Source: a virus. From it: DNA of 64,000 nucleotides. A program made the position numbers and the translations under genes. The notes beneath the pieces are model-generated. The model was not told the DNA's origin. It saw nothing but the letters and a program-made list of their open reading frames with translations, and did no database searches. Position 1 is the stretch's first letter. The number at the start of each line of letters is the position of its first letter. Positions 29,802-38,091 of this stretch are shown in pieces. The DNA lies in IMG/VR virus record IMGVR_UViG_3300024988_000067; one strand, 5' to 3'.

Positions 29802-30272
29802 CTATTTCTTAAGCGGAATGCCCGGCTTCGGCGGGGCGAAAATCTCCTTGCCTCTGACCCCTTTGTGGTACCTGTAGTAGAGTGTCCGGTATGGGATGCC
29901 GGTGGCATCGGCCCAGCCTTTTATCGTTCTGCGCACGCCGTCGATCTCGAGGAAGCAGTTGTTCCGCTTGTTTTCGCACTGGGTTTGCATGGACACCCAG
30001 CGGCAGTTGTCCGGTCCATAGCCCGCATTGTTGTTGGCCCGGTCCAGGGTGAGGCCGGGCCTGTATCCGTTCTCCAGCGCCCATATCTCGAAGGACAGGA
30101 AGGAGCTTTGCCATTCCTGGCAAACGCTTATCCCGCGCTCGCCGTAGTTGTGGAAGACCTCGGCCGTCTCGTTCATGCACCGGTACATCATCGAGCGCCA
30201 AACCCTGTAGAGGCTGCTCTCGGCGAGGTCTTGCCCGGTTGCACCGTGGCGCTCGTATCGGCGCTTCGTCAT
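29802..30272 (-). CDS. HNH homing-endonuclease-like protein
   Basis: LYRVWRSMMYRC...NYGERGISVCQEW...LTLDRANNNAGYGPDNCRW; ATGA-coupled to the int stop. Confidence 0.85.
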   Translation of the reverse strand: MTKRRYERHGATGQDLAESSLYRVWRSMMYRCMNETAEVFHNYGERGISVCQEWQSSFLSFEIWALENGYRPGLTLDRANNNAGYGPDNCRWVSMQTQCENKRNNCFLEIDGVRRTIKGWADATGIPYRTLYYRYHKGVRGKEIFAPPKPGIPLKK

Positions 30273-31447
30273 CCCACCTGCACCCTGACCCACTCCGCCC
30301 CGCGGGCGTCCTTGTAGATTGCGGTTGAACGGGGGTCTTTGTGGCCCAGCAGCAGCTGGGTATTGACGTTCCCTTGGTCGTTGTAGAGCCGTTCCGCCAG
30401 GGAGCGCAGTTCGTGGAAGCTGGGCGGGGTTTTGCCGGTTTCCCATAGGGGCGATTCGCTGCGGCTGGCGGCGAGGTCGCGGGCGTCGGCGAAGCGGCGG
30501 GTGATGGTATCTATCCACACCTGGTCGCCTGGATTGCAATTGCCGTAGGGACGTGTGTGGTGGACAGCGTAGCGGCTGACGACGGTGTCACGGCAGCGAG
30601 CGATGACTTCGCCGAGTTCAAGGCCGACGACGTCTAGACGCAGACTTAATGGGATGGCGACGCGGTTTCCGGTTTTTTGCTGGATGACGTAGATGGCGCC
30701 GGACTCGACCCAGGCCGAGGCGCCGGCGCGGGGACGGAATTCGATGCAGGCGATGTCTTCGCGGCGCTGGCCGGTGACGATAGCGAGCTCGATGCTGCGG
30801 GCGATCCACGGCGAGTCGAGTTCGAGGCTGGCAGCGTGGATCTGGCGGAAGCTGTCGAGCACCAGGCGGGCGCGCTGCACTTCGACTGACGGCGCGCGAG
30901 TCTTGGCGAATGGGTTGTCGGTGGCGAGGCCTTCGGCGATGGCGGTCTTGAAGATCTCGATTCCTTCGCTGCGCACGGCCAGCGCCATACGTTCGCGCGG
31001 TGGATCTGATTCGAGGTAGGCGGCGAGGATCTCTACGGCGTCGCGTACGCTGAAAGCGTCGATCGGCAGTTTGCCCTTGGCGCGGGTGATGGCGTTGCCG
31101 ATGCTGCGCTTGGTCTTGAGCGTGTTGGCGGCGAGCTTGCCCTTGGCCTGCAACTTCTCGCAGTGCTCGATGTGCTTGAGGATGACGGCGCCGAGGGTAG
31201 GACCGCTGGGCCTGGCTGTGGCGATGGCATCGACGCGCGCGCCGGCGAGCTGGGCGAGGATGGCGGCGTTGAGCGCTTTGGCGTCGGCGATGGCGGAGAC
31301 CTTGTCGCTGCCCATGCCGTGGAAGGTGCCGGTGCGGATGTCCTTGTAGCGGTAATAGGTGCGTCCGCTGGCGCGGTCTACAGTGGCATAGAGGTTGTCA
31401 GGCAGGTCGAGACTGCCCGGGCGGCGGCGGGGTGGCATGGCGGGCAT
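30269..31447 (-). CDS. int: Phage integrase, lambda-type tyrosine recombinase with arm-binding N-domain
   Basis: LPDNLY...YYRYKDIRTG N-domain; TGQRREDI, SFHELRSL, LLGHK, Y catalytic residues. Confidence 0.95.
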   Translation of the reverse strand: MPAMPPRRRPGSLDLPDNLYATVDRASGRTYYRYKDIRTGTFHGMGSDKVSAIADAKALNAAILAQLAGARVDAIATARPSGPTLGAVILKHIEHCEKLQAKGKLAANTLKTKRSIGNAITRAKGKLPIDAFSVRDAVEILAAYLESDPPRERMALAVRSEGIEIFKTAIAEGLATDNPFAKTRAPSVEVQRARLVLDSFRQIHAASLELDSPWIARSIELAIVTGQRREDIACIEFRPRAGASAWVESGAIYVIQQKTGNRVAIPLSLRLDVVGLELGEVIARCRDTVVSRYAVHHTRPYGNCNPGDQVWIDTITRRFADARDLAASRSESPLWETGKTPPSFHELRSLAERLYNDQGNVNTQLLLGHKDPRSTAIYKDARGAEWVRVQVG

Positions 31448-31455
31448 AGTAAACC

Positions 31456-32478
31456 TTATGCGGCGATCCGGTCGAGCGGGCTGATCGCACCGGCGGCGCC
31501 GCGTTTGACGACGTGGGTATAGATCATGGTGGTAGAAACGTCAGAGTGACCGAGCAGTTCCTGTACGGTGCGGATGTCGCTACCTGTTTCGAGCAGATGC
31601 GTGGCGAAGCTGTGGCGGAGGGTATGGCAGCTTGCAGGCTTATGGATGCCGGCCGCGATTACGGCGGCGCGCATGGCGCGCTGGATGCCTTTTTCATGGA
31701 TGTGGTGGCGGCGCACGACGCCGGTGCGTGGATCGGTGCTGTAGTCGGCCGCGGCGAATACGTATTGCCATGCCCATTCCTTCGGCGCGTTCGGATATTT
31801 CTTCCACAGCGCATGCGGTAGTTCGACGTCGACCATGCCGCGCGCGAGGTCGATGTCGTGCATCTTGCGGCGGACGGCGAGCTGATCGCGCAGCGGCTGC
31901 ACCAGGCTGGCAGGTAGCGGGACGACGCGGTCCTTGTCGCCCTTGCCGCCGCGCACCAGGATGATGTTCGAGTCGAAGTCGATGTCCTTGACGCGCAGCC
32001 GCATGGCTTCCATGAGGCGCATGCCGGTTCCGTAGAGCAGCCTGATGATCAGCCCGCTCGTGCCCTTGGTATGGGCAAGCACTGCAGCCACCTCGGACTG
32101 GCTCAATACGACAGGAAGCCGGGCCGGTTTCTTGGCGCGCGTGATGTTGTCGAGCCATGGCAGGTCGATTCCGAGCACATGCTTGTATAGGAAAAGCAGC
32201 GCTGCGAGCGCCTGATTTTGCGTGCTGGCAGAAACGTCACGCTCATTTGCGAGCATCGACAGGAAGGCTTCTATCTCGGGCGCTCCCATGTCGGCAGGGT
32301 GGCGAAGGCCGCTCCAGTGGATGAAGTGCTTGACCCAGCTGATATAGGTGCGCTCAGTGCGCAAGCTGTAGTGCTTGACACGGATCGCCGCGCGCATCTG
32401 GTCTAGCAGCTTGGGCTTGGCGGACACGGATGCCTTGTCCTGCTGCTGTGTCTCGATATGATCGATAGTTTCAGTCAT
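31456..32478 (-). CDS. intI: Integron integrase (not class 1)
   Basis: KHYSLRTERTY, STQNQALAALLFLY, LYGTGMRLME, GKGDKDR, integron-specific insertion LPHALWKKYPNAPKEWAWQYVF...DPRTGVVRRHH, HTLRHSFATHLL, IRTVQELLGHSDVSTTMIYTH all intact. Confidence 0.97.
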   Translation of the reverse strand: MTETIDHIETQQQDKASVSAKPKLLDQMRAAIRVKHYSLRTERTYISWVKHFIHWSGLRHPADMGAPEIEAFLSMLANERDVSASTQNQALAALLFLYKHVLGIDLPWLDNITRAKKPARLPVVLSQSEVAAVLAHTKGTSGLIIRLLYGTGMRLMEAMRLRVKDIDFDSNIILVRGGKGDKDRVVPLPASLVQPLRDQLAVRRKMHDIDLARGMVDVELPHALWKKYPNAPKEWAWQYVFAAADYSTDPRTGVVRRHHIHEKGIQRAMRAAVIAAGIHKPASCHTLRHSFATHLLETGSDIRTVQELLGHSDVSTTMIYTHVVKRGAAGAISPLDRIAA

Positions 32479-32520: not shown

Positions 32521-32569
32521 TTGATAGATTCGCGGACATCAGGGTGTCGTAGAATTTAAGTTAGCGGTC
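32521..32569 (+). other. attI site; crossover G/TT at 32560/32561
   Basis: gtcgtagaatttaaGTTAGCG just upstream of, and divergent from, intI; the core is mirrored by R'' of attC1. Confidence 0.8.
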
Positions 32570-33305
32570 ACAGGCTGCACGTCCTGCATTTGTTGGCTGA
32601 AAACCCAAACAGGTCGCCAGTCAACTCAGTGCCGCGTGGTATCTCGCCGCGCTCAAAAACATCCCGCAGTTCCGCCAGCGAGGCGGGCCAAGTGTCGCGG
32701 CTCGGGCTTCTGAATGTGTGCCCTATCGCCTGCTCCTGTTCCACCGCGTCCTGGTAAATCTCCGGGTGCTCTTTCCACAACATCCACCATTCCGGTAGCG
32801 TCTGGAAAAAACACCTAGCACAGTCCGTTCTTTCTGGTATCTGCACATCCCGATCCATCAAATACCCAAGCACATCACCCAAACCCCAACCCCAATCCCT
32901 GAAAGGGAAGCGAACTTCGCAGTTCTCATAAATCCCGCCCTCGCGGCCTTCCTCATCTGCCCGCAGCCCGATATACAAAACCACCTTGTTTCCCTGCTCG
33001 GCCTGGCGGTTTATCCACTCCTGGCAAGTTTCAATTTTCAAAACCCTAGTGCAAAACCGCTTCTGCCAATTCGGCAGGCATTTTTCCCGTTCGCACAAAC
33101 CCTTAAAATCTACCTCTGCGGTCAGCCGCGTCAGCCGCTTCCCGATCAGGCATTCCAGCCTATCCCAGTGCTCCAGCATCACCGGCAATTCATCGCCGGT
33201 GGGTGTGCACAAAAACACATAGTCCTGCGGCTCAATTTCGGCCAAGCGTAGCGCCAGCGCCGTGGAGTCTTTGCCGCCTGATAAACCAACTACGTGTAGT
33301 TCCAT
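32568..33305 (-). CDS. Cassette 1: PAPS-reductase-family (PP-loop) protein with Cys motifs
   Basis: VVGLSGGKDS, RFCTRVLKI, YIGLRADEEGR, RTDCARCFFQ; RBS GAGGA before MELHVV. Confidence 0.85.
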   Translation of the reverse strand: MELHVVGLSGGKDSTALALRLAEIEPQDYVFLCTPTGDELPVMLEHWDRLECLIGKRLTRLTAEVDFKGLCEREKCLPNWQKRFCTRVLKIETCQEWINRQAEQGNKVVLYIGLRADEEGREGGIYENCEVRFPFRDWGWGLGDVLGYLMDRDVQIPERTDCARCFFQTLPEWWMLWKEHPEIYQDAVEQEQAIGHTFRSPSRDTWPASLAELRDVFERGEIPRGTELTGDLFGFSANKCRTCSL

Positions 33306-33320
33306 GTCATCCTCAAAGAC

Positions 33321-33381
33321 CGCTAACACGGCGGTCAACAGCGACCGCGCGAAGCGCGGCGCGTTACCTTAGTCGTTGGCC
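33321..33381 (+). other. attC1 (61 bp)
   Basis: R'' (gac)CGCTAAC, L'' GGT(C)AAC pairs with L' GTTACC, R' GTTGGCC. Confidence 0.9.
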
Positions 33382-33412
33382 GCCACCTTTGCGCGGTGGC
33401 GGGTTCCTACTC

Positions 33413-33595
33413 TTATGCCGTTTCGAGTGCGCTCTCGTTCCACCAGCTTTCCACGGCGCGGCCGTCGGCGGCTTTGTAGCGCAGCAGGTAGCTGTTCCCA
33501 CCTACCGCGTATTCCGCTCTGGCGATAATGCTGCCCGTTTCACCGCTGGCCGAAATCTTCACGGTCTGGTTCATGCTGAAGGTAAATCCGTTCAT
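33413..33595 (-). CDS. Cassette 2: small phage-type protein (60 aa)
   Basis: ORF track; fills the cassette. Confidence 0.7.
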   Translation of the reverse strand: MNGFTFSMNQTVKISASGETGSIIARAEYAVGGNSYLLRYKAADGRAVESWWNESALETA

Positions 33596-33639
33596 TTGCT
33601 GCCCCTGTTCAAAATGCCGTGCCTTCGTTTGGGCGGCAC

Positions 33640-33703
33640 GGCCAACCCGTTAATCAAGCGGGACCGGCGCTAAAGCGCCGGCCCCTTATTGCTGTCGTTG
33701 GGC
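33640..33703 (+). other. attC2 (64 bp)
   Basis: GGCCAAC, AAT(C)AAG/CTTATT, loop gcgctaaagcgc, GTTGGGC. Confidence 0.9.
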
Positions 33704-33912
33704 ACCTCATCATTCAGCTTTGCCAGCAGCTCCGGGTGAACAAACAGCGTGTTGCCGCTTCGGTACATTGCTGGCCTGTCGATCCGGTGCTTAACCACCA
33801 GCCAGTTGCGGCGGCGCTTCTTTATCGGGTTCCGCTCGATGCGCCACACAGTCCGCACTTCGCGGGCCATCGGTGCGCTCACAACGGTCAATCCGTAAAT
33901 CGTTCGGTTCAT
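33670..33912 (-). CDS. Cassette 3: hypothetical protein (MNRTIYG...), stop lies in attC2
   Basis: RBS GGAGAGG; ends VPNDSNKGPAL*. Confidence 0.7.
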   Translation of the reverse strand: MNRTIYGLTVVSAPMAREVRTVWRIERNPIKKRRRNWLVVKHRIDRPAMYRSGNTLFVHPELLAKLNDEVPNDSNKGPAL

Positions 33913-33932
33913 GGTTTCCTCTCCGGGCCAGT

Positions 33933-34019
33933 GCCCAACAATCCGGTCGAGCCGAGGCCCGCCAGCGTCTTTAATCCTTGCCGTGTTCCGTAAGGCCCGG
34001 CTCACCGCAAGCGTTCGGC
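33933..34019 (+). other. attC3 (87 bp)
   Basis: GCCCAAC, GGT(C)GAGC/GCTCACC, GTTCGGC. Confidence 0.9.
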
Positions 34020-34273
34020 GTCAGCTTCACGAATCCTCGGGCGACCATGTACGGGTCGCGCTCTGGGTGATACCGCCGCGCTTCAATGTTCTTCGCCGGC
34101 TTCAGGCTCAACATCCGCCGCCAGTATTTTCCGCAGGCCAGCGCCCGCTCGTGGTTCGCGGCCGCCACGTAAACCGAGCTGCCGCACTGCTTGCCCTTGC
34201 GGTCTATCGGGTACACCTCCCACTGCAATCGTTCGGGGTTCGCGCCCCACTTTCTCGGGTCGTCGTAGCTCAC
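33971..34273 (-). CDS. Cassette 4, ORF b (GTG start, 100 aa), stop lies in attC3
   Basis: GTGA overlap with ORF a; ends TPNACGEPGLTEHGKD*. Confidence 0.65.
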   Translation of the reverse strand: MSYDDPRKWGANPERLQWEVYPIDRKGKQCGSSVYVAAANHERALACGKYWRRMLSLKPAKNIEARRYHPERDPYMVARGFVKLTPNACGEPGLTEHGKD

Positions 34274-34488
34274 AGGTCTTTCTCCATCACTCGGCACGGC
34301 CAGTGATGGCCGCAGTTTGCACAGGCGGCTGTGTCCAGCCGGGTTGTTTTCAGCGCGGCCGGCGATCCGTTGGCCATCAGCCAGTGGTAGGCGTGGCGTC
34401 CGCAGCGCGGGCACCGGCGCTCAATCTTGGCCGGCAGCCGCCGAACCCGTCGCTCCAGAGGGACGCCCTCCATGCCGCTTCGCGTCAT
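34270..34488 (-). CDS. Cassette 4, ORF a: CxxC...CxxC zinc-ribbon protein, start inside attC4
   Basis: CPRC...CANC; RBS GGGGAGA and ATG lie within attC4. Confidence 0.6.
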   Translation of the reverse strand: MTRSGMEGVPLERRVRRLPAKIERRCPRCGRHAYHWLMANGSPAALKTTRLDTAACANCGHHWPCRVMEKDL

Positions 34489-34518
34489 TCCGGTCTCCCC
34501 TGATCTAGTGCGTTAGGC
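34440..34518 (+). other. attC4 (79 bp)
   Basis: GCCGAAC ... GTTAGGC; L boxes imperfect. Confidence 0.75.
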
Positions 34519-34803
34519 ATCGTCATGCTCTTGTTCACGCATCGCCATATCAATCGCGTCCCGCAGGCTGTGCAGGTTCGCGGTCACGCAATGGGTCGGA
34601 AGTTGCACGTTGCCCACAGGGTTGTCCGGGTCGCTCAACCAGTCCAGCCGTGCCGCATCGGCACGCAGTCTTTTGTTCTCGCGCTCCAGTTCGCGCAGCT
34701 TGTTCGCCGCCTGCCTCATCGCCTCTGCCTTTACTGGCGTGGTCGCCCTATTGGCTTCGCGGTCCAGGTAGCCCGCATATCGTTGTGCCATGCTCATCTT
34801 CAT
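34513..34803 (-). CDS. Cassette 5: phage-type coiled-coil protein (DAARLDWL motif)
   Basis: Stop TAA is formed by the cassette core TTA. Confidence 0.75.
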   Translation of the reverse strand: MKMSMAQRYAGYLDREANRATTPVKAEAMRQAANKLRELERENKRLRADAARLDWLSDPDNPVGNVQLPTHCVTANLHSLRDAIDMAMREQEHDDA

Positions 34804-34810
34804 CCTCTGC

Positions 34811-34871
34811 GCCTAACCCGGCGCTCAAGCGGGACCGCGCTAAAGCGCGGCCCCTTAGCTATGCGTTGGGC
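34811..34871 (+). other. attC5 (61 bp)
   Basis: GCCTAAC, GCT(C)AAG/CTTAGC, loop gcgctaaagcgc, GTTGGGC. Confidence 0.92.
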
Positions 34872-35116
34872 CACTCTGCAACCGTGGTCACGTCTTTCGA
34901 TGCGCCGCACCTCTTGCAAAGGTAGCCGGTGGTTGTCCACTTCAGTCCGTCGCCGTCCGGGTCAAGGTCGAGCGATCCGCTTGTGATTGACCATCGGTGC
35001 AGCCCTAGCGCACAAAGCAGTGGTGTGTATCCAATTTTTGCGGCCAGCGTTTGCAGCCCAACCCGGCAGTCGAGCGGAGGCTCGGCAGCGGCTTTGTGGT
35101 CTTTGCTATCGTTCAT
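34859..35116 (-). CDS. Cassette 6: Cys/His small protein (85 aa), start in attC6 and stop in attC5
   Basis: MNDSKDHKAAAEPPLDCRVG...LCALGLHRW...CKRCG...WPNA*. Confidence 0.7.
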   Translation of the reverse strand: MNDSKDHKAAAEPPLDCRVGLQTLAAKIGYTPLLCALGLHRWSITSGSLDLDPDGDGLKWTTTGYLCKRCGASKDVTTVAEWPNA

Positions 35117-35145
35117 TCTCGCCCTCGCTAACTTTTGCGTTGGGC
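35056..35145 (+). other. attC6 (90 bp)
   Basis: GCCCAAC, AGT(C)GAGC/GCTAACT, GTTGGGC; near-identical to attC7. Confidence 0.88.
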
Positions 35146-35357
35146 ACCTTGCATTTAGGAATCTCGGTTGCCATTGCGCGGCCCTCGTATGTGTCGCGCC
35201 GCCACCACCAGTATTCCGCGCCATCAAATCCGCAATGCACGCAGCATCCGTCATCGTCCCATTCGTGGCCGTTGTTCAGGGATCGCTTAGTCCGTTGCCC
35301 AACCCGGCAGTCGAGCGGAGGCTCGGCAGCGGCTTTGTGGTCTTTGCTATTTTCCAT
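35106..35357 (-). CDS. Cassette 7: zinc-ribbon small protein, start in attC7 and stop in attC6
   Basis: GHEW....CCVHCG; ends VPNAKVSEGENER*. Confidence 0.7.
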   Translation of the reverse strand: MENSKDHKAAAEPPLDCRVGQRTKRSLNNGHEWDDDGCCVHCGFDGAEYWWWRRDTYEGRAMATEIPKCKVPNAKVSEGENER

Positions 35358-35386
35358 TCTCGCCCTCGCTCACTTTTGCGTTGGGC
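35297..35386 (+). other. attC7 (90 bp)
   Basis: GCCCAAC, AGT(C)GAGC/GCTCACT, GTTGGGC. Confidence 0.9.
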
Positions 35387-35580
35387 ACCGGGTCATATTG
35401 ATACTCAAACCCATCGCACTTGACCCCTTCGTCGCCTCGCATCATTTCCATAGTCAGGCCACACGCGCCCGTAATGATCTCGTGCGGGTAATCCGGTATG
35501 AAGTGCGTGCAGTTCTGGCATATGCGGTCGCAGTTACACAAACCGGGGAAACACTTTTCGCAAAACGCAAACGTAACCAT
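35347..35580 (-). CDS. Cassette 8: Cys-rich small protein, stop lies in attC7
   Basis: CEKC...CNC..ICQNCTH...GAC...KC; ends VPNAKVSEGENGK*; start uncertain. Confidence 0.65.
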   Translation of the reverse strand: MVTFAFCEKCFPGLCNCDRICQNCTHFIPDYPHEIITGACGLTMEMMRGDEGVKCDGFEYQYDPVPNAKVSEGENGK

Positions 35581-35586
35581 TTCAGT

Positions 35587-35648
35587 GCCCAACAAGTTAA
35601 TCGAGCGGGACCGTCGCAAGCGCCGGCCCCTCATTGCTGGCGTTCTGC
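35587..35648 (+). other. attC8 (62 bp)
   Basis: GCCCAAC, AAT(C)GAG/CTCATT, GTTCTGC. Confidence 0.9.
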
Positions 35649-35932
35649 GGAATTTCCGCGCTGTCATGCGGTAGCTTCCCAACTTGTCGCAAATAGCCGA
35701 TATAGTTTTCGTCCGCCACTAATGAGACGCACATCAGTTCATATGGTCCTTTGTACGCCGTGCGCGGCACCTCGCCGGGCGCGGACTCCGGTTTTTCAAG
35801 GCACTTGAATCCGATGCTGAAAACAAACCCTGGAATCATCGGCAGCGCGTCGGCGCGAATCTTCAGTTCGCCAATCACCTTGTCATTTAGGAAACTCTCC
35901 AGAACCGGCACCGTTATAAATTCATCTTTCAT
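35597..35932 (-). CDS. Cassette 9: hypothetical protein (111 aa), stop lies in attC8
   Basis: RBS AAGGA; ends PQNASNEGPALATVPLD*. Confidence 0.75.
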   Translation of the reverse strand: MKDEFITVPVLESFLNDKVIGELKIRADALPMIPGFVFSIGFKCLEKPESAPGEVPRTAYKGPYELMCVSLVADENYIGYLRQVGKLPHDSAEIPQNASNEGPALATVPLD

Positions 35933-35965
35933 TTTTTTGTCCTTTCTTCGTAGTTACCAAATTCC

Positions 35966-36028
35966 GCAGAACACAACGCTCGTGTGGGACCGCCGCTAAA
36001 GCGGCGTCCCCACAGCTAAGCGTTGGGC
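35966..36028 (+). other. attC9 (63 bp)
   Basis: GCAGAAC, GCT(C)GTG/CACAGC, loop gctaaagc, GTTGGGC. Confidence 0.9.
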
Positions 36029-36231
36029 ACCAGGCCATGCTGCGCAAACAGTGCAACGTCCTCGGCGTCCGCAAACTTTGTTCCGCCGCCTTGCGAGTAC
36101 AGGCTGCGGACGGCTGGTGTCGCATGCCCTTCCTCGCGCAGCAATACGGCCACGGCGCAGTAGTAGCCGCGCGACCACTCGCGGCTTGCGATGTCGTCGA
36201 TCACCTTGTTAATCCGGTCGGCAAATGCCAT
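36016..36231 (-). CDS. Cassette 10: hypothetical protein (MAFADR...), stop lies in attC9
   Basis: RBS AGGAG; ends VPNA*. Confidence 0.7.
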   Translation of the reverse strand: MAFADRINKVIDDIASREWSRGYYCAVAVLLREEGHATPAVRSLYSQGGGTKFADAEDVALFAQHGLVPNA

Positions 36232-36248
36232 GTTCTGCTCCTGTTCGT

Positions 36249-36308
36249 GCCCAACCATTTATTCAACTCGGACGCGCTAAAGCGCGCCGGTTATGTCAAG
36301 CGTTAGGC
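36249..36308 (+). other. attC10 (60 bp)
   Basis: GCCCAAC ... loop gcgctaaagcgc ... GTTAGGC; L boxes imperfect. Confidence 0.82.
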
Positions 36309-36596
36309 ACACAAACGCAGTGCATCAATGGCATTGATTGCGGCGGCCTTATCTGAGTCGGGTGCCGGTGTGGAGCGAATAGCGATCTCCATTGCGTCCA
36401 GCTCCTCTTTTGTGCTGGCTCCGATCAGTCCGGCCAGTGCATTACGCAGCCGCTCAATCTTTTGCTCTGCCTCGCGCATAGGATGTTTCTCGCAATTCTT
36501 TATGTGTTCAGTCAACAGTTCATGCTTTGCGGCTGGTGTTCCGTCTGGGTATTGGTGCCCGCAATAAACACAGGTTACAACATTGTTTTCACTCAT
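36303..36596 (-). CDS. Cassette 11: zinc-finger-like (CVYC...HIKNC..H) phage-type protein
   Basis: Stop TAA is formed by the core TTA. Confidence 0.75.
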   Translation of the reverse strand: MSENNVVTCVYCGHQYPDGTPAAKHELLTEHIKNCEKHPMREAEQKIERLRNALAGLIGASTKEELDAMEIAIRSTPAPDSDKAAAINAIDALRLCA

Positions 36597-36616
36597 AATT
36601 CAATTCTCCCAAAAGT

Positions 36617-36692
36617 GCCTAACAAGGCAAATTAACTGCGACCGTTCCGGTCGCTGCGCTCCCTACACGTCGCGTTATTTGCAACGTTAGCC
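36617..36692 (+). other. attC11 (76 bp)
   Basis: GCCTAAC, AAAT(T)AAC/GTTATTT, GTTAGCC. Confidence 0.88.
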
Positions 36693-36878
36693 GCCACGTG
36701 TGCCGCCCAATTCGCGCAGCTTGTCGCATACCCATTGTGGGTCTGTCACGCTACCGCCAGGCATCACTTCGATTGCCCGGTTTAGTGCGGCCTTCCACGC
36801 AGCGCGCGCAACCCATTCCTGTGCTTCTGGGTCGTATTTCATCCCTTCGCGTTCAAACCATTGTTCAAATTCGTCCAC
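36687..36878 (-). CDS. Cassette 12: small phage-type protein (GTG start)
   Basis: FEQWF...VARAAWKAA; RBS GGAGAG lies inside attC12. Confidence 0.7.
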   Translation of the reverse strand: MDEFEQWFEREGMKYDPEAQEWVARAAWKAALNRAIEVMPGGSVTDPQWVCDKLRELGGTRGG

Positions 36879-36965
36879 GTCTAACTCTCCATTCCAGGCG
36901 AGGCCGTGGAGCAGCCTTCACCCATAGTTGTGTTCTTTCGGCCCGCCTAAATTTCAGCGTTGGCC
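36879..36965 (+). other. attC12 (87 bp), last attC of the array
   Basis: GTCTAAC, ATT(C)CAGG/CCTAAAT, GTTGGCC. Confidence 0.78.
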
Positions 36966-36969
36966 GTCA

Positions 36970-37611
36970 CTACGCCGCCACCGGGAACGTGCGTTGCACT
37001 TGGATGTGCCGATCCTTCACGCGCTCATCCGTCATCACGGCTCGCGGGCCGCGCCGGTAGAACTGAAGCGCCAAGCTCAGCGCCGCGCCCCACTGCGCGC
37101 CCGAGAGACCGATGGCGCGGATGCGTGCGTTGGCAAAGCCCGCTGTCTCAATCTCTTCGCGGTCTCGCTCCCACGCTTCGCGGTCGTCCCACGTTTCCGG
37201 TTCGTACTTCCGCTCCAACAGGTGCCGCAGAATCTAGGCCGCCGTGATGTGAATGCACTGCTCGTAGCCGGGGCCAAAGCCTCCCATTTCAATGCTCCAG
37301 CAGGTTCCGCCGTCGTCCCACCGCTTCAGCCAGTCCGCAGCGTCAGCGCCGTAGGTGTCGATCTCGTGCTTTTCCTTGTCCTCGGCTTCGGTGCGATAGA
37401 ACACCTTCTGGCCGTCGAGAAACAGGCCGCGCACCGTGAAGCCGATTCCCTTGCCGTAGAAGCGCGCCGTCATGCCCTCTGTCGGTACCACGGGAGAGGG
37501 CGCAGGAACGTAAAAGCTCCAGCCGTCAGCCCGCTCGATGCTCCAGCCTTTGCCCTCGTCGCGCACTTTGGCGACTGTGGTTTCTTCAAACTGCTCGTCA
37601 TTCGGGTACAT
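36970..37611 (-). pseudogene. Hypothetical gene interrupted by one in-frame TAG (37234-37236)
   Basis: ...CIHITAA*ILRHLLERKYE... continues in the same frame to 36970. Confidence 0.7.
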
Positions 37612-37636: not shown

Positions 37637-37852
37637 GTGCCGGCCAACCATCCAAACAGGGGGCCGAAATGCCCCTCTGCAAATCCAGCGCCAGCAGAAA
37701 TCCGGGAGGCCCGCGAAGCTGCTGGGATGTCGCAAACGGCGGCTGCATCCCTCATCCACTGCACCCTTCGCGGGTGGCAGGAGTGGGAGGCAGGCAACCG
37801 CAAAATGCACCCGGCGTTCTGGGAACTGTTCCGCATCAAATCAGCCCTCTAA
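37637..37852 (+). CDS. Small XRE-family HTH protein
   Basis: ANHPNR...EIREAREAAGMSQTAAASLI...WQEWEAGNRKMHPAFWELF. Confidence 0.75.
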   Translation: MPANHPNRGPKCPSANPAPAEIREAREAAGMSQTAAASLIHCTLRGWQEWEAGNRKMHPAFWELFRIKSAL

Positions 37853-37854
37853 CA

Positions 37855-38091
37855 TCACGCTGCCGCCCTGAATATCACGGCTGCCCGATCGGACAGATTC
37901 ACGATTGCCCTGTCCGCTGGTGCAGCCTGCGCATGGGTATAGATGGCGTCGCGCTCGACATACCAGGTGCGGCCGGCTTTGATTGGGGCGGGCTGGATGT
38001 GGCCTGAGCGGGCCCAGGCGCGCAGGGTTGGCAGGGTCGGCTGGGGGTCGAAATGCAGGGCTGCCCAGGCTTCTAGGGTGATGCGTTTCAT
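37855..38091 (-). CDS. xis: Excisionase (lambda-like Xis)
   Basis: MKRITLEAWAALHF..QPTLPTLRAWARSGHIQPAPIKAGRTWYVERDA. Confidence 0.85.
   Translation of the reverse strand: MKRITLEAWAALHFDPQPTLPTLRAWARSGHIQPAPIKAGRTWYVERDAIYTHAQAAPADRAIVNLSDRAAVIFRAAA

Follow-up and report, generated by a model that had tools for sequence, protein, structure and literature searches.

Reversed cassettes of a phage-borne integron appear to share one reading frame and to borrow their stop codons from neighbouring recombination sites

How does a gene end when it runs, without a stop codon of its own, into the recombination site of its neighbour? This question is raised by positions 32,521 to 36,965 of a 64,000-nucleotide viral sequence (IMG/VR record IMGVR_UViG_3300024988_000067; this whole stretch is referred to below as the window), which hold an array of integron cassettes in which several open reading frames (ORFs) cross the recombination point of the adjoining attC site. 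Integron biology assumes that cassette genes lie on the top strand of their attC sites and that cassettes are self-contained units. A sequence-only reading of the array had proposed instead that the bottom strands of these sites act as translation punctuation, with one shared reading frame and a stop in every site, so that any cassette would end correctly beside any neighbour and reshuffling would exchange C-terminal tails. Comparison of the window with related integrons partly supported this interpretation, and a convention of one shared crossing frame is, taken as a whole, the best and a probable explanation of the data.

The product of the intI gene in the window is an integron integrase, as it matched TIGR02249 with 476 bits (cut-off 265) and covered 315 of 315 profile positions. 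The array, consisting of attI and 12 attC sites of 60-90 bp, lies to the right of intI, and the sites extend up to 36965; attI is located 82 nt upstream of intI, at its 5' end, with the crossover between G and TT. In all 12 attCs, the minus strand forms the hairpin typical of an attC bottom strand, with T and G as extrahelical bases on its 3' arm, and a covariance model built for the minus strand matched 12 of 12 window sites on that strand only; since the model was trained on the window attCs and their relatives, these matches are partly circular, while its matches in 84 other loci are independent. As the attC bottom strand is thus the minus strand, the polarity of the attCs relative to intI and attI is ordinary. 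The cassette genes, by contrast with the standard layout (ORFs on the attC top strand, read away from intI), which was not found in the window, all lie on the minus strand, i.e., the attC bottom strand, and are read towards intI. A codon log-likelihood score favoured the bottom strand in 10 of the 11 cassettes scored, with one ambiguous and none assigned to the top strand, and the Pfam and PHROG matches (PAPS-reductase family, phrog_8618) also fall on bottom-strand ORFs. The array is placed between a phage xis and a phage int gene, and int, integron and xis are all on one strand. We therefore consider it likely, with the same confidence as is attached to the explanation as a whole, that a temperate phage carries a genuine integron here and that the stretch contains its cassette array. 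The features are listed below, with frame 0 denoting the frame in which the AAC of the core is read as a codon and bits denoting covariance model scores.

30269-31447, minus strand: lambda-type int, the phage gene flanking the integron
31456-32478, minus strand: intI, 340 aa, TIGR02249 with Pfam Phage_int_SAM_4 and Phage_integrase
32539-32566, minus strand: attI, crossover G/TT at 32560/32561; bottom-strand frame 0 reads AAC TTA AAT TCT ACG ACA CCC TGA, i.e., the tail NLNSTTP with its stop at 32539-32541
32568-33338, minus strand: cassette 1 ORF, PAPS-reductase family (Pfam PF01507, phrog_424), own TGA, likely true start near 33305
33321-33381, minus strand: attC1, 53.7 bits and fold; frame 0 gives ND and a stop
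33413-33595, minus strand: cassette 2 ORF, 60 aa, own TAA, phrog_8618 (E = 2.6e-28)
33640-33703, minus strand: attC2, 64.9 bits and fold; gives DSNKGPAL and the stop TAG (33670-72) to the cassette 3 ORF
33670-33912, minus strand: cassette 3 ORF, without own stop, crosses at 33697 (EVPN, then DSNKGPAL and stop); codon score favours this strand
33933-34019, minus strand: attC3, 50.6 bits; supplies the tail ACGEPGLTEHGKD and a stop
33971-34488, minus strand: cassette 4, two coupled ORFs joined by a GTGA stop-start overlap
34270-34488, minus strand: first ORF of cassette 4, 72 aa, zinc-ribbon-like
33971-34273, minus strand: second ORF of cassette 4, 100 aa, crosses at 34013 after LTPN
34440-34518, minus strand: attC4, 59 bits; its core TAA ends the cassette 5 ORF; frame 0 gives NALDQGRPE and a stop
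34513-34803, minus strand: cassette 5 ORF, ends at the core TAA (34513-15)
34811-34871, minus strand: attC5, 58.7 bits; frame 0 gives NA and a stop
34859-35116, minus strand: cassette 6 ORF, crosses at 34865 (EWPN, then A and stop); its start is inside attC6
35056-35145, minus strand: attC6, 51.6 bits; tail AKVSEGENER, whose stop overlaps the start of the cassette 6 ORF
35106-35357, minus strand: cassette 7 ORF, crosses at 35139 after KVPN
35297-35386, minus strand: attC7, 48.5 bits, twin of attC6; tail AKVSEGENGK and a stop
35347-35580, minus strand: cassette 8 ORF, crosses at 35380 after PVPN
35587-35648, minus strand: attC8, 57.1 bits; tail ASNEGPALATVPLD and a stop
35597-35932, minus strand: cassette 9 ORF, crosses at 35642 after IPQN
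35966-36028, minus strand: attC9, 54.5 bits; frame 0 gives NA and a stop
36016-36231, minus strand: cassette 10 ORF, crosses at 36022 (LVPN, then A and stop)
36249-36308, minus strand: attC10, 50.7 bits; its core TAA ends the cassette 11 ORF; frame 0 gives NA and a stop
36303-36596, minus strand: cassette 11 ORF, ends at the core TAA (36303-05)
36617-36692, minus strand: attC11, 42.4 bits; its core TAA ends the cassette 12 ORF; frame 0 gives 18 codons and a stop
36687-36878, minus strand: cassette 12 ORF, ends at the core TAA (36687-89)
36879-36965, minus strand: attC12, 41.7 bits; frame 0 gives NAEI and a stop
36970-37611, minus strand: cassette 13 ORF, own TAG 11 nt before AAC, with an in-frame TAG at 37234-37236
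37855-38091, minus strand: Exc-family xis, the phage gene at the other flank

The observations on which the sequence-only reading rested were reproduced. Seven ORFs (cassettes 3, 4, 6, 7, 8, 9 and 10) lack an own stop and pass through the crossover with AAC in frame, the residues at the crossing being, in cassette order, VPN, TPN, WPN, VPN, VPN, PQN and VPN; if the ORFs were independent, the probability of all seven sharing one frame by chance would be approx. (1/3)^6 = 0.0014. For the ORFs of cassettes 5, 11 and 12, the core TTA, read on the bottom strand as TAA, provides the stop, and cassettes 1, 2 and 13 have own stops. A frame-0 stop is present in all 12 attCs and in attI, and every tail previously listed was exact, including NACGEPGLTEHGKD for attC3 and NASNEGPALATVPLD for attC8. 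Within the window attCs, a stop inside the site was found in frame 0 for 12 of 12 sites, as compared to 7 of 12 in frame 1 and 9 of 12 in frame 2; finding 12 of 12 has P = 0.0085 at the stop density of the family and P of approx. 5e-4 at the 53% rate of dinucleotide shuffles.

To place the window among its relatives, approx. 80 IMG/VR viral contigs and 80 bacterial genomes with related IntI were fetched, and attCs were searched with the covariance model in 135 loci (all viral loci and 55 genome loci; individual loci are given L numbers). The search yielded 320 attCs in 85 loci, nearly all of them on the intI-coding strand and upstream of intI. According to the codon model on which the strand calls rest, 132 of 144 cassettes from viral contigs are coded on the bottom strand, 2 on the top strand and 10 are ambiguous; the corresponding numbers for 85 cassettes from bacterial loci are 11, 37 and 37. 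Reversed arrays were called in more than 40 independent viral contigs, and reversed coding is thus the rule in phage-borne integrons of this clade. One virus (Rctr41k) with an IntI-like gene was left out, as a pattern-and-fold scan showed no attC-like site upstream of that gene.

The frame in which ORFs meet the next attC was then read at 132 deduplicated junctions of a bottom-strand ORF with the following site. ORFs crossed in frame 0 at 61 junctions, in frame 2 at one and in frame 1 at none; the core TAA (frame 2) ended the ORF at 28 junctions and an own stop at 42, of which 23 are located exactly 8 nt before AAC (frame 1) and are TGA in all but one case. Under strict ORF criteria, 49 frame-0 ORFs crossed and 5 ended at an own stop or core TAA, as compared to 0 and 31 in frame 1 and 0 and 25 in frame 2. 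A shared crossing frame is therefore a near-absolute rule in the relatives. The ORFs that cross encode the cassette proteins themselves and have a median length of 111 aa. At the other end of the array, the ORF of the first cassette crosses attI in frame 0 in at least 17 loci; related phage loci share, upstream of intI, the conserved motif AAC followed by TTAAATTC.ACGACACC, which provides a frame-0 stop after 3-17 codons, while its frame 1 stops immediately at TAA and its frame 2 is open into intI in several loci. In five loci (L097, L098, L110, L138 and L095), attI frame 2 remains open for approx. 340-370 codons because it runs in frame into intI, and an ORF crossing there in frame 2 would be an integrase fusion. 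Of 38 top-strand ORFs in related standard arrays, only 3 continue across R''.

We also considered whether the core sequence itself forces the choice of frame, and rejected this explanation, as GCCCAAC is open in all three frames and as a frame-0 TAG at -9, which would fit the conserved W(-8) and G(-7), does not occur at all. The R' box is extended in these sites to W(-8) G(-7) .. G(-4) C C Y AAC, which is conserved whatever the frame of the ORF (e.g., window positions 34021-34014) and is not complementary to the flank beyond R''.

Among 174 phage-type attCs, which are not fully independent (139 sequence clusters), the bottom strand carried a stop inside the site in 84% of cases in frame 0, 60% in frame 1 and 58% in frame 2, as compared to 53%, 52% and 47% in dinucleotide shuffles of the same sites; the figures for 71 sites of standard arrays were 65%, 72% and 55% (phage-type versus standard sites in frame 0, P = 0.002; Fisher's exact test). 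The number of phage-type sites without a frame-0 stop was 28 as compared to 54.1 expected from stop density (P < 5e-5), and 28, 99, 35, 11 and 1 sites carried 0 to 4 such stops, with a peak at exactly one. In frames 1 and 2 of phage-type sites and in all frames of standard arrays, the numbers of stopless sites fitted expectation; on the top strand of standard arrays there is a weak mirror effect (23 stopless sites versus 31.7 expected, P = 0.02). Where the current neighbour does not cross, frame-0 stops were just as frequent (59 of 70 sites, P = 0.003), in line with the proposal that a cassette can end correctly beside any neighbour; this proposal holds to that extent, but not for the 16% of related sites that have no frame-0 stop. 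Moreover, potential tails of more than 40 codons occur in 3% of phage-type sites in frame 0, as compared to 20% in frame 1, 26% in frame 2 and 22% in frame 0 of standard arrays.

Natural variants show that tails are exchanged where recombination is expected, as had been predicted: homologous ORFs diverge exactly after the AAC codon, matching the expected crossover. Between loci L105 and L106, one identical gene body ends in TVHN followed by V and a stop in the former and by 29 further residues in the latter, and a second identical body ends in VPSN followed by 13 and 32 residues, respectively. The cassette 4 protein ends in LTPN and ACGEPGLTEHGKD in the window and in VTPN, A and a stop in a 76%-identical homologue in L014, and in 16 database homologues conservation extends as far as TPN, after which at least nine unrelated tails follow. 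Three tails after P(Q/P)N were found in the cassette 9 family, including homologues ending in PQN followed by VKLTGE and in PPN followed by AKG. On the side of the sites, an unrelated ORF in L004/L094 receives the same tail from a site near-identical to attC3, attC sequences recur next to different flanks in other metagenomes (attC9 in one of these), and a metagenome contig with cassette 1 in another context breaks exactly at 32560. The occurrence of the same cassettes beside different neighbours is indirect evidence that points to IntI-catalysed excision and insertion. The summed depth of contigs from aquatic and wastewater metagenomes on the attCs is hundreds to thousands of times that on the cassette bodies (e.g., 33326-33496, 33839-34009 and 35036-35377), these families of sites being abundant repeats that accompany many other cassettes. 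The cassette 12 homologue in L151 is 79% identical and has the same end.

These data can be put together as follows. Reversed cassettes would be read along the leftward operon of the phage, and in this orientation the boundary between AA and C of the R' core forms the 3' end of each gene. A gene arriving in frame 1 relies on its own stop, usually a TGA exactly 8 nt before AAC; one arriving in frame 2 stops at the TAA of the YTAAC core; and one arriving in frame 0, being stopless, continues until the adjoining attC, or attI, offers a stop in its frame. As IntI can bring any two cassettes together, long fusion proteins would result from sites that have no frame-0 stop, and frequent reshuffling may purge such sites. 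The excess of sites with a frame-0 stop fits purifying selection for a shared convention. By this account, the tails would be translated, selection rather than ancestry would keep the stops in place, and a phage promoter would drive the array.

One alternative is that the stops are selected for translational coupling, with ribosomes that terminate in attC melting the hairpin of the mRNA and re-initiating at the next start; we regard this as rather unlikely on its own terms, and it may act alongside a shared frame-0 convention. At 8 of 37 frame-0 junctions, the stop is no more than 10 nt from the next start or overlaps it, six of these eight having a 4-nt overlap of the ATGA type, and the absence of such abutment from all 47 junctions with own-stop or core-TAA endings is suggestive. 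In attC6 and attC7, a ribosome-binding site and the start of the ORF belonging to the site overlap the incoming stop. At most junctions, however, 30-100 nt separate the stop from the next start, which is usually located 13-40 nt past attC and has its own ribosome-binding site, and stop positions are scattered over the spacer, the 5' arm, the loop and the 3' end of the site. General coupling was thus rejected as the main explanation, because it is seen at only 8 of 37 junctions; in the reading that we favour, coupling probably contributes at a minority of junctions, of which attC6 and attC7 would be examples.

A second alternative is that the stops are a by-product of attC bottom strands being rich in stops, which arise from T[AG][AG] at +6, from the L' box at +10/+11 and from A/T-rich unpaired spacers, and that the tails are neutral junk under no selection. 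Several observations favour it and weigh against a selected convention. Stop hot spots at +4, +6, +10 and +11 are common to phage-type and standard attCs, with T[AG][AG] at +6 (giving NA and a stop) in 24% and 18% of sites, respectively; the hot spots at +6 and +10/+11 are generic features of attC. The density of frame-0 stops per codon is nearly the same in phage-type (0.049) and standard (0.051) sites, and in both types of array stop triplets per codon are approx. two times as frequent on bottom strands (0.034-0.053) as on top strands (0.018-0.036). The comparison of frame-0 stops with standard attCs and shuffles, by which the sequence-only reading was to be judged, gave an excess confined to phage-type sites, with part of the stops accounted for by what all attCs share. 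When one site per sequence cluster was used, the contrast between phage-type and standard arrays had a median P of 0.04 (range 0.005-0.16), and the standard control is small, with 71 sites in 37 clusters that were found with a model trained on phage-type sites. The claim that every site has a stop holds for the 12 window attCs and falls to 84% among relatives; one natural junction in L106, where the site has no stop, reads 85 codons into the next ORF. The tails are unrelated and variable, and distant cassette 9 homologues end approx. 10 residues earlier. No run recorded as RNA contains the stretch; RNA-labelled metagenome contigs match pieces of it only and have no strand information, and the runs that contain window sequence are DNA or unresolved contigs.

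Against the by-product explanation, the deficit of stopless sites is found only in frame 0 of phage-type arrays, crossing is absent from frame 1 and limited to one case in frame 2 even though the core is open in those frames, and long potential tails are rare in frame 0 only. The by-product accounts for the stops at +6 and in the L' box; it does not account for the frame-specific deficit or for the missing crossing in frames 1 and 2, and we consider it unlikely as the full explanation, slightly more so than coupling. Finally, it is extremely improbable that the bottom-strand ORFs are spurious open frames of GC-rich DNA and the shared frame meaningless: most of them are short (60-110 aa) and without a Pfam family, and long antisense ORFs exist in the GC-rich window, but the codon score favours the bottom strand in the window and in viral cassettes alike, the PAPS reductase and phrog_8618 matches lie on that strand, homologue families are kept at the protein level up to the crossover, and the GTGA-coupled ORF pair recurs in a Thiobacillus chromosome.

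That last pair is located in L171 (6801-8819), a Thiobacillus metagenome-assembled genome in which the integron lies among housekeeping genes with no phage genes called nearby; the same zinc-ribbon ORF and 100-aa ORF are found near intI in bottom-strand orientation, coupled by GTGA, which indicates that reversed cassettes also reach chromosomal integrons. On phages, a recombinase gene of varying family was found just downstream of intI in 7 of 10 sampled viral loci, and the integron module thus appears to be placed next to the integration module of the phage itself in diverse phages. The genes 3' of intI and in the same direction in nine of these loci (L094, L100, L103, L105, L111, L119, L131, L146 and L154) are non-homologous phage genes, namely six tyrosine integrases, one large serine recombinase, one ParB and one lambda-family portal protein; no family was found for the gene downstream of intI in the tenth, L097. 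Searches with tblastn using the lambda-type Int, Xis and neighbouring proteins of the window found no homologues in the other loci. As the recombinases are, in addition, of different families, the order xis, array, intI, int is not generalised here, only the association of array, intI and a phage recombinase.

At the far end of the window array, cassette 13 would be a single ORF of approx. 213 codons except for the internal TAG at 37234-37236; a variant in metagenome run X6 (37236 A>C) makes this TAG a sense codon, and the cassette in the window thus looks like a nonsense mutant. No attC distal to cassette 13 was detected by the covariance model. An XRE-type HTH gene is located on the top strand beyond it (37637-37852, plus strand) and overlaps a putative attC remnant recognised by eye (approx. 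37640-37690), with an R''-like GGCCAAC and a GGGGGC/GCCCC stem and without an R' box, at which the covariance model gave no site. A homologue of this HTH gene is a top-strand cassette within the L004/L094 array.

Compared to classical integrons (mobile class 1 and sedentary chromosomal integrons of Betaproteobacteria), the window integron has the same IntI-specific domain, attI beside the 5' end of intI, R''/L''/L'/R' boxes, extrahelical bases, attC polarity relative to intI and G/TT crossover. It differs in that its cassette genes occupy the bottom strand and point towards intI, in that the array sits in a phage operon between xis and int, and in that approx. half of the reversed genes have no own stop, as compared to the 3 of 38 ORFs crossing R'' in related standard arrays. 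A borrowed stop is not unprecedented: in class 1 integrons, the stop of ORF-11 and ORF-18 of attI1 is supplied by the first cassette, and coupling or re-initiation has been proposed for ORF-11 and for short ORFs in class 1 attC sites (PMC8876359). The seven window ORFs and the 61 crossing junctions resemble ORF-11 and ORF-18 in spanning the crossover and using an in-phase stop from beyond it. The two kinds are unlike in that ORF-11 and ORF-18 are top-strand leader peptides of 11-18 aa at attI only, whereas the reversed cassettes encode whole proteins on the bottom strand that cross attCs as well as attI in one fixed frame; no short leader peptide of the ORF-11 type was found at attI, where the crossing ORFs are cassette proteins.

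Standard cassettes that end in or near the R'' inverse core, at the TAA of GCCTAAC, offer a second parallel. The core TAA is used in both (28 of 132 reversed junctions versus 11 of 38 standard ones), and in both kinds ORFs end within a few bases of the site. In standard cassettes, however, the terminating site is the cassette's own and travels with it, while in reversed cassettes it belongs to the neighbour, which makes the C-terminus of the protein dependent on context. Qi et al. 2023 (PMC9892861) describe integrons and attC clusters in phage genomes, e.g., in Shewanella prophage M16-3, which is alike in carrying a complete integron on a temperate phage and unlike in having cassette ORFs divergent from intI, in the standard layout. 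A word search of that article for orientation and stop-codon terms returned no passage on reversed coding or shared stops, and literature searches elsewhere found no description of reversed coding or of borrowed stops. What is new here is the frame rule, together with the stop statistics and the swapping of tails in natural variants.

A wider proposal, for and against which we see the case as evenly balanced, is that phage-borne integrons form a distinct and widespread class with inverted coding and a co-evolved frame grammar, in which attC and attI would have been selected to supply exactly one frame-0 stop. The sites would then double as portable translation terminators, and sometimes as coupled re-start sites, and reshuffling would rewrite the C-terminus of the upstream protein.

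The phage integrons of an entire lineage depart from both the top-strand placement and the self-containment assumed of cassette genes, in that the end of one cassette's protein is encoded, in a fixed frame, by the site of another cassette. The attC sequences would carry a translational constraint on top of their structural one. Borrowed stops would also explain the odd, variable C-termini that annotation pipelines report for the small proteins of these phages. When cassette genes are called in phage arrays, by annotators or by tools such as IntegronFinder, both strands should be taken into account. More generally, these arrays would provide a concrete and testable case of sequence conventions co-evolving among mobile modules.

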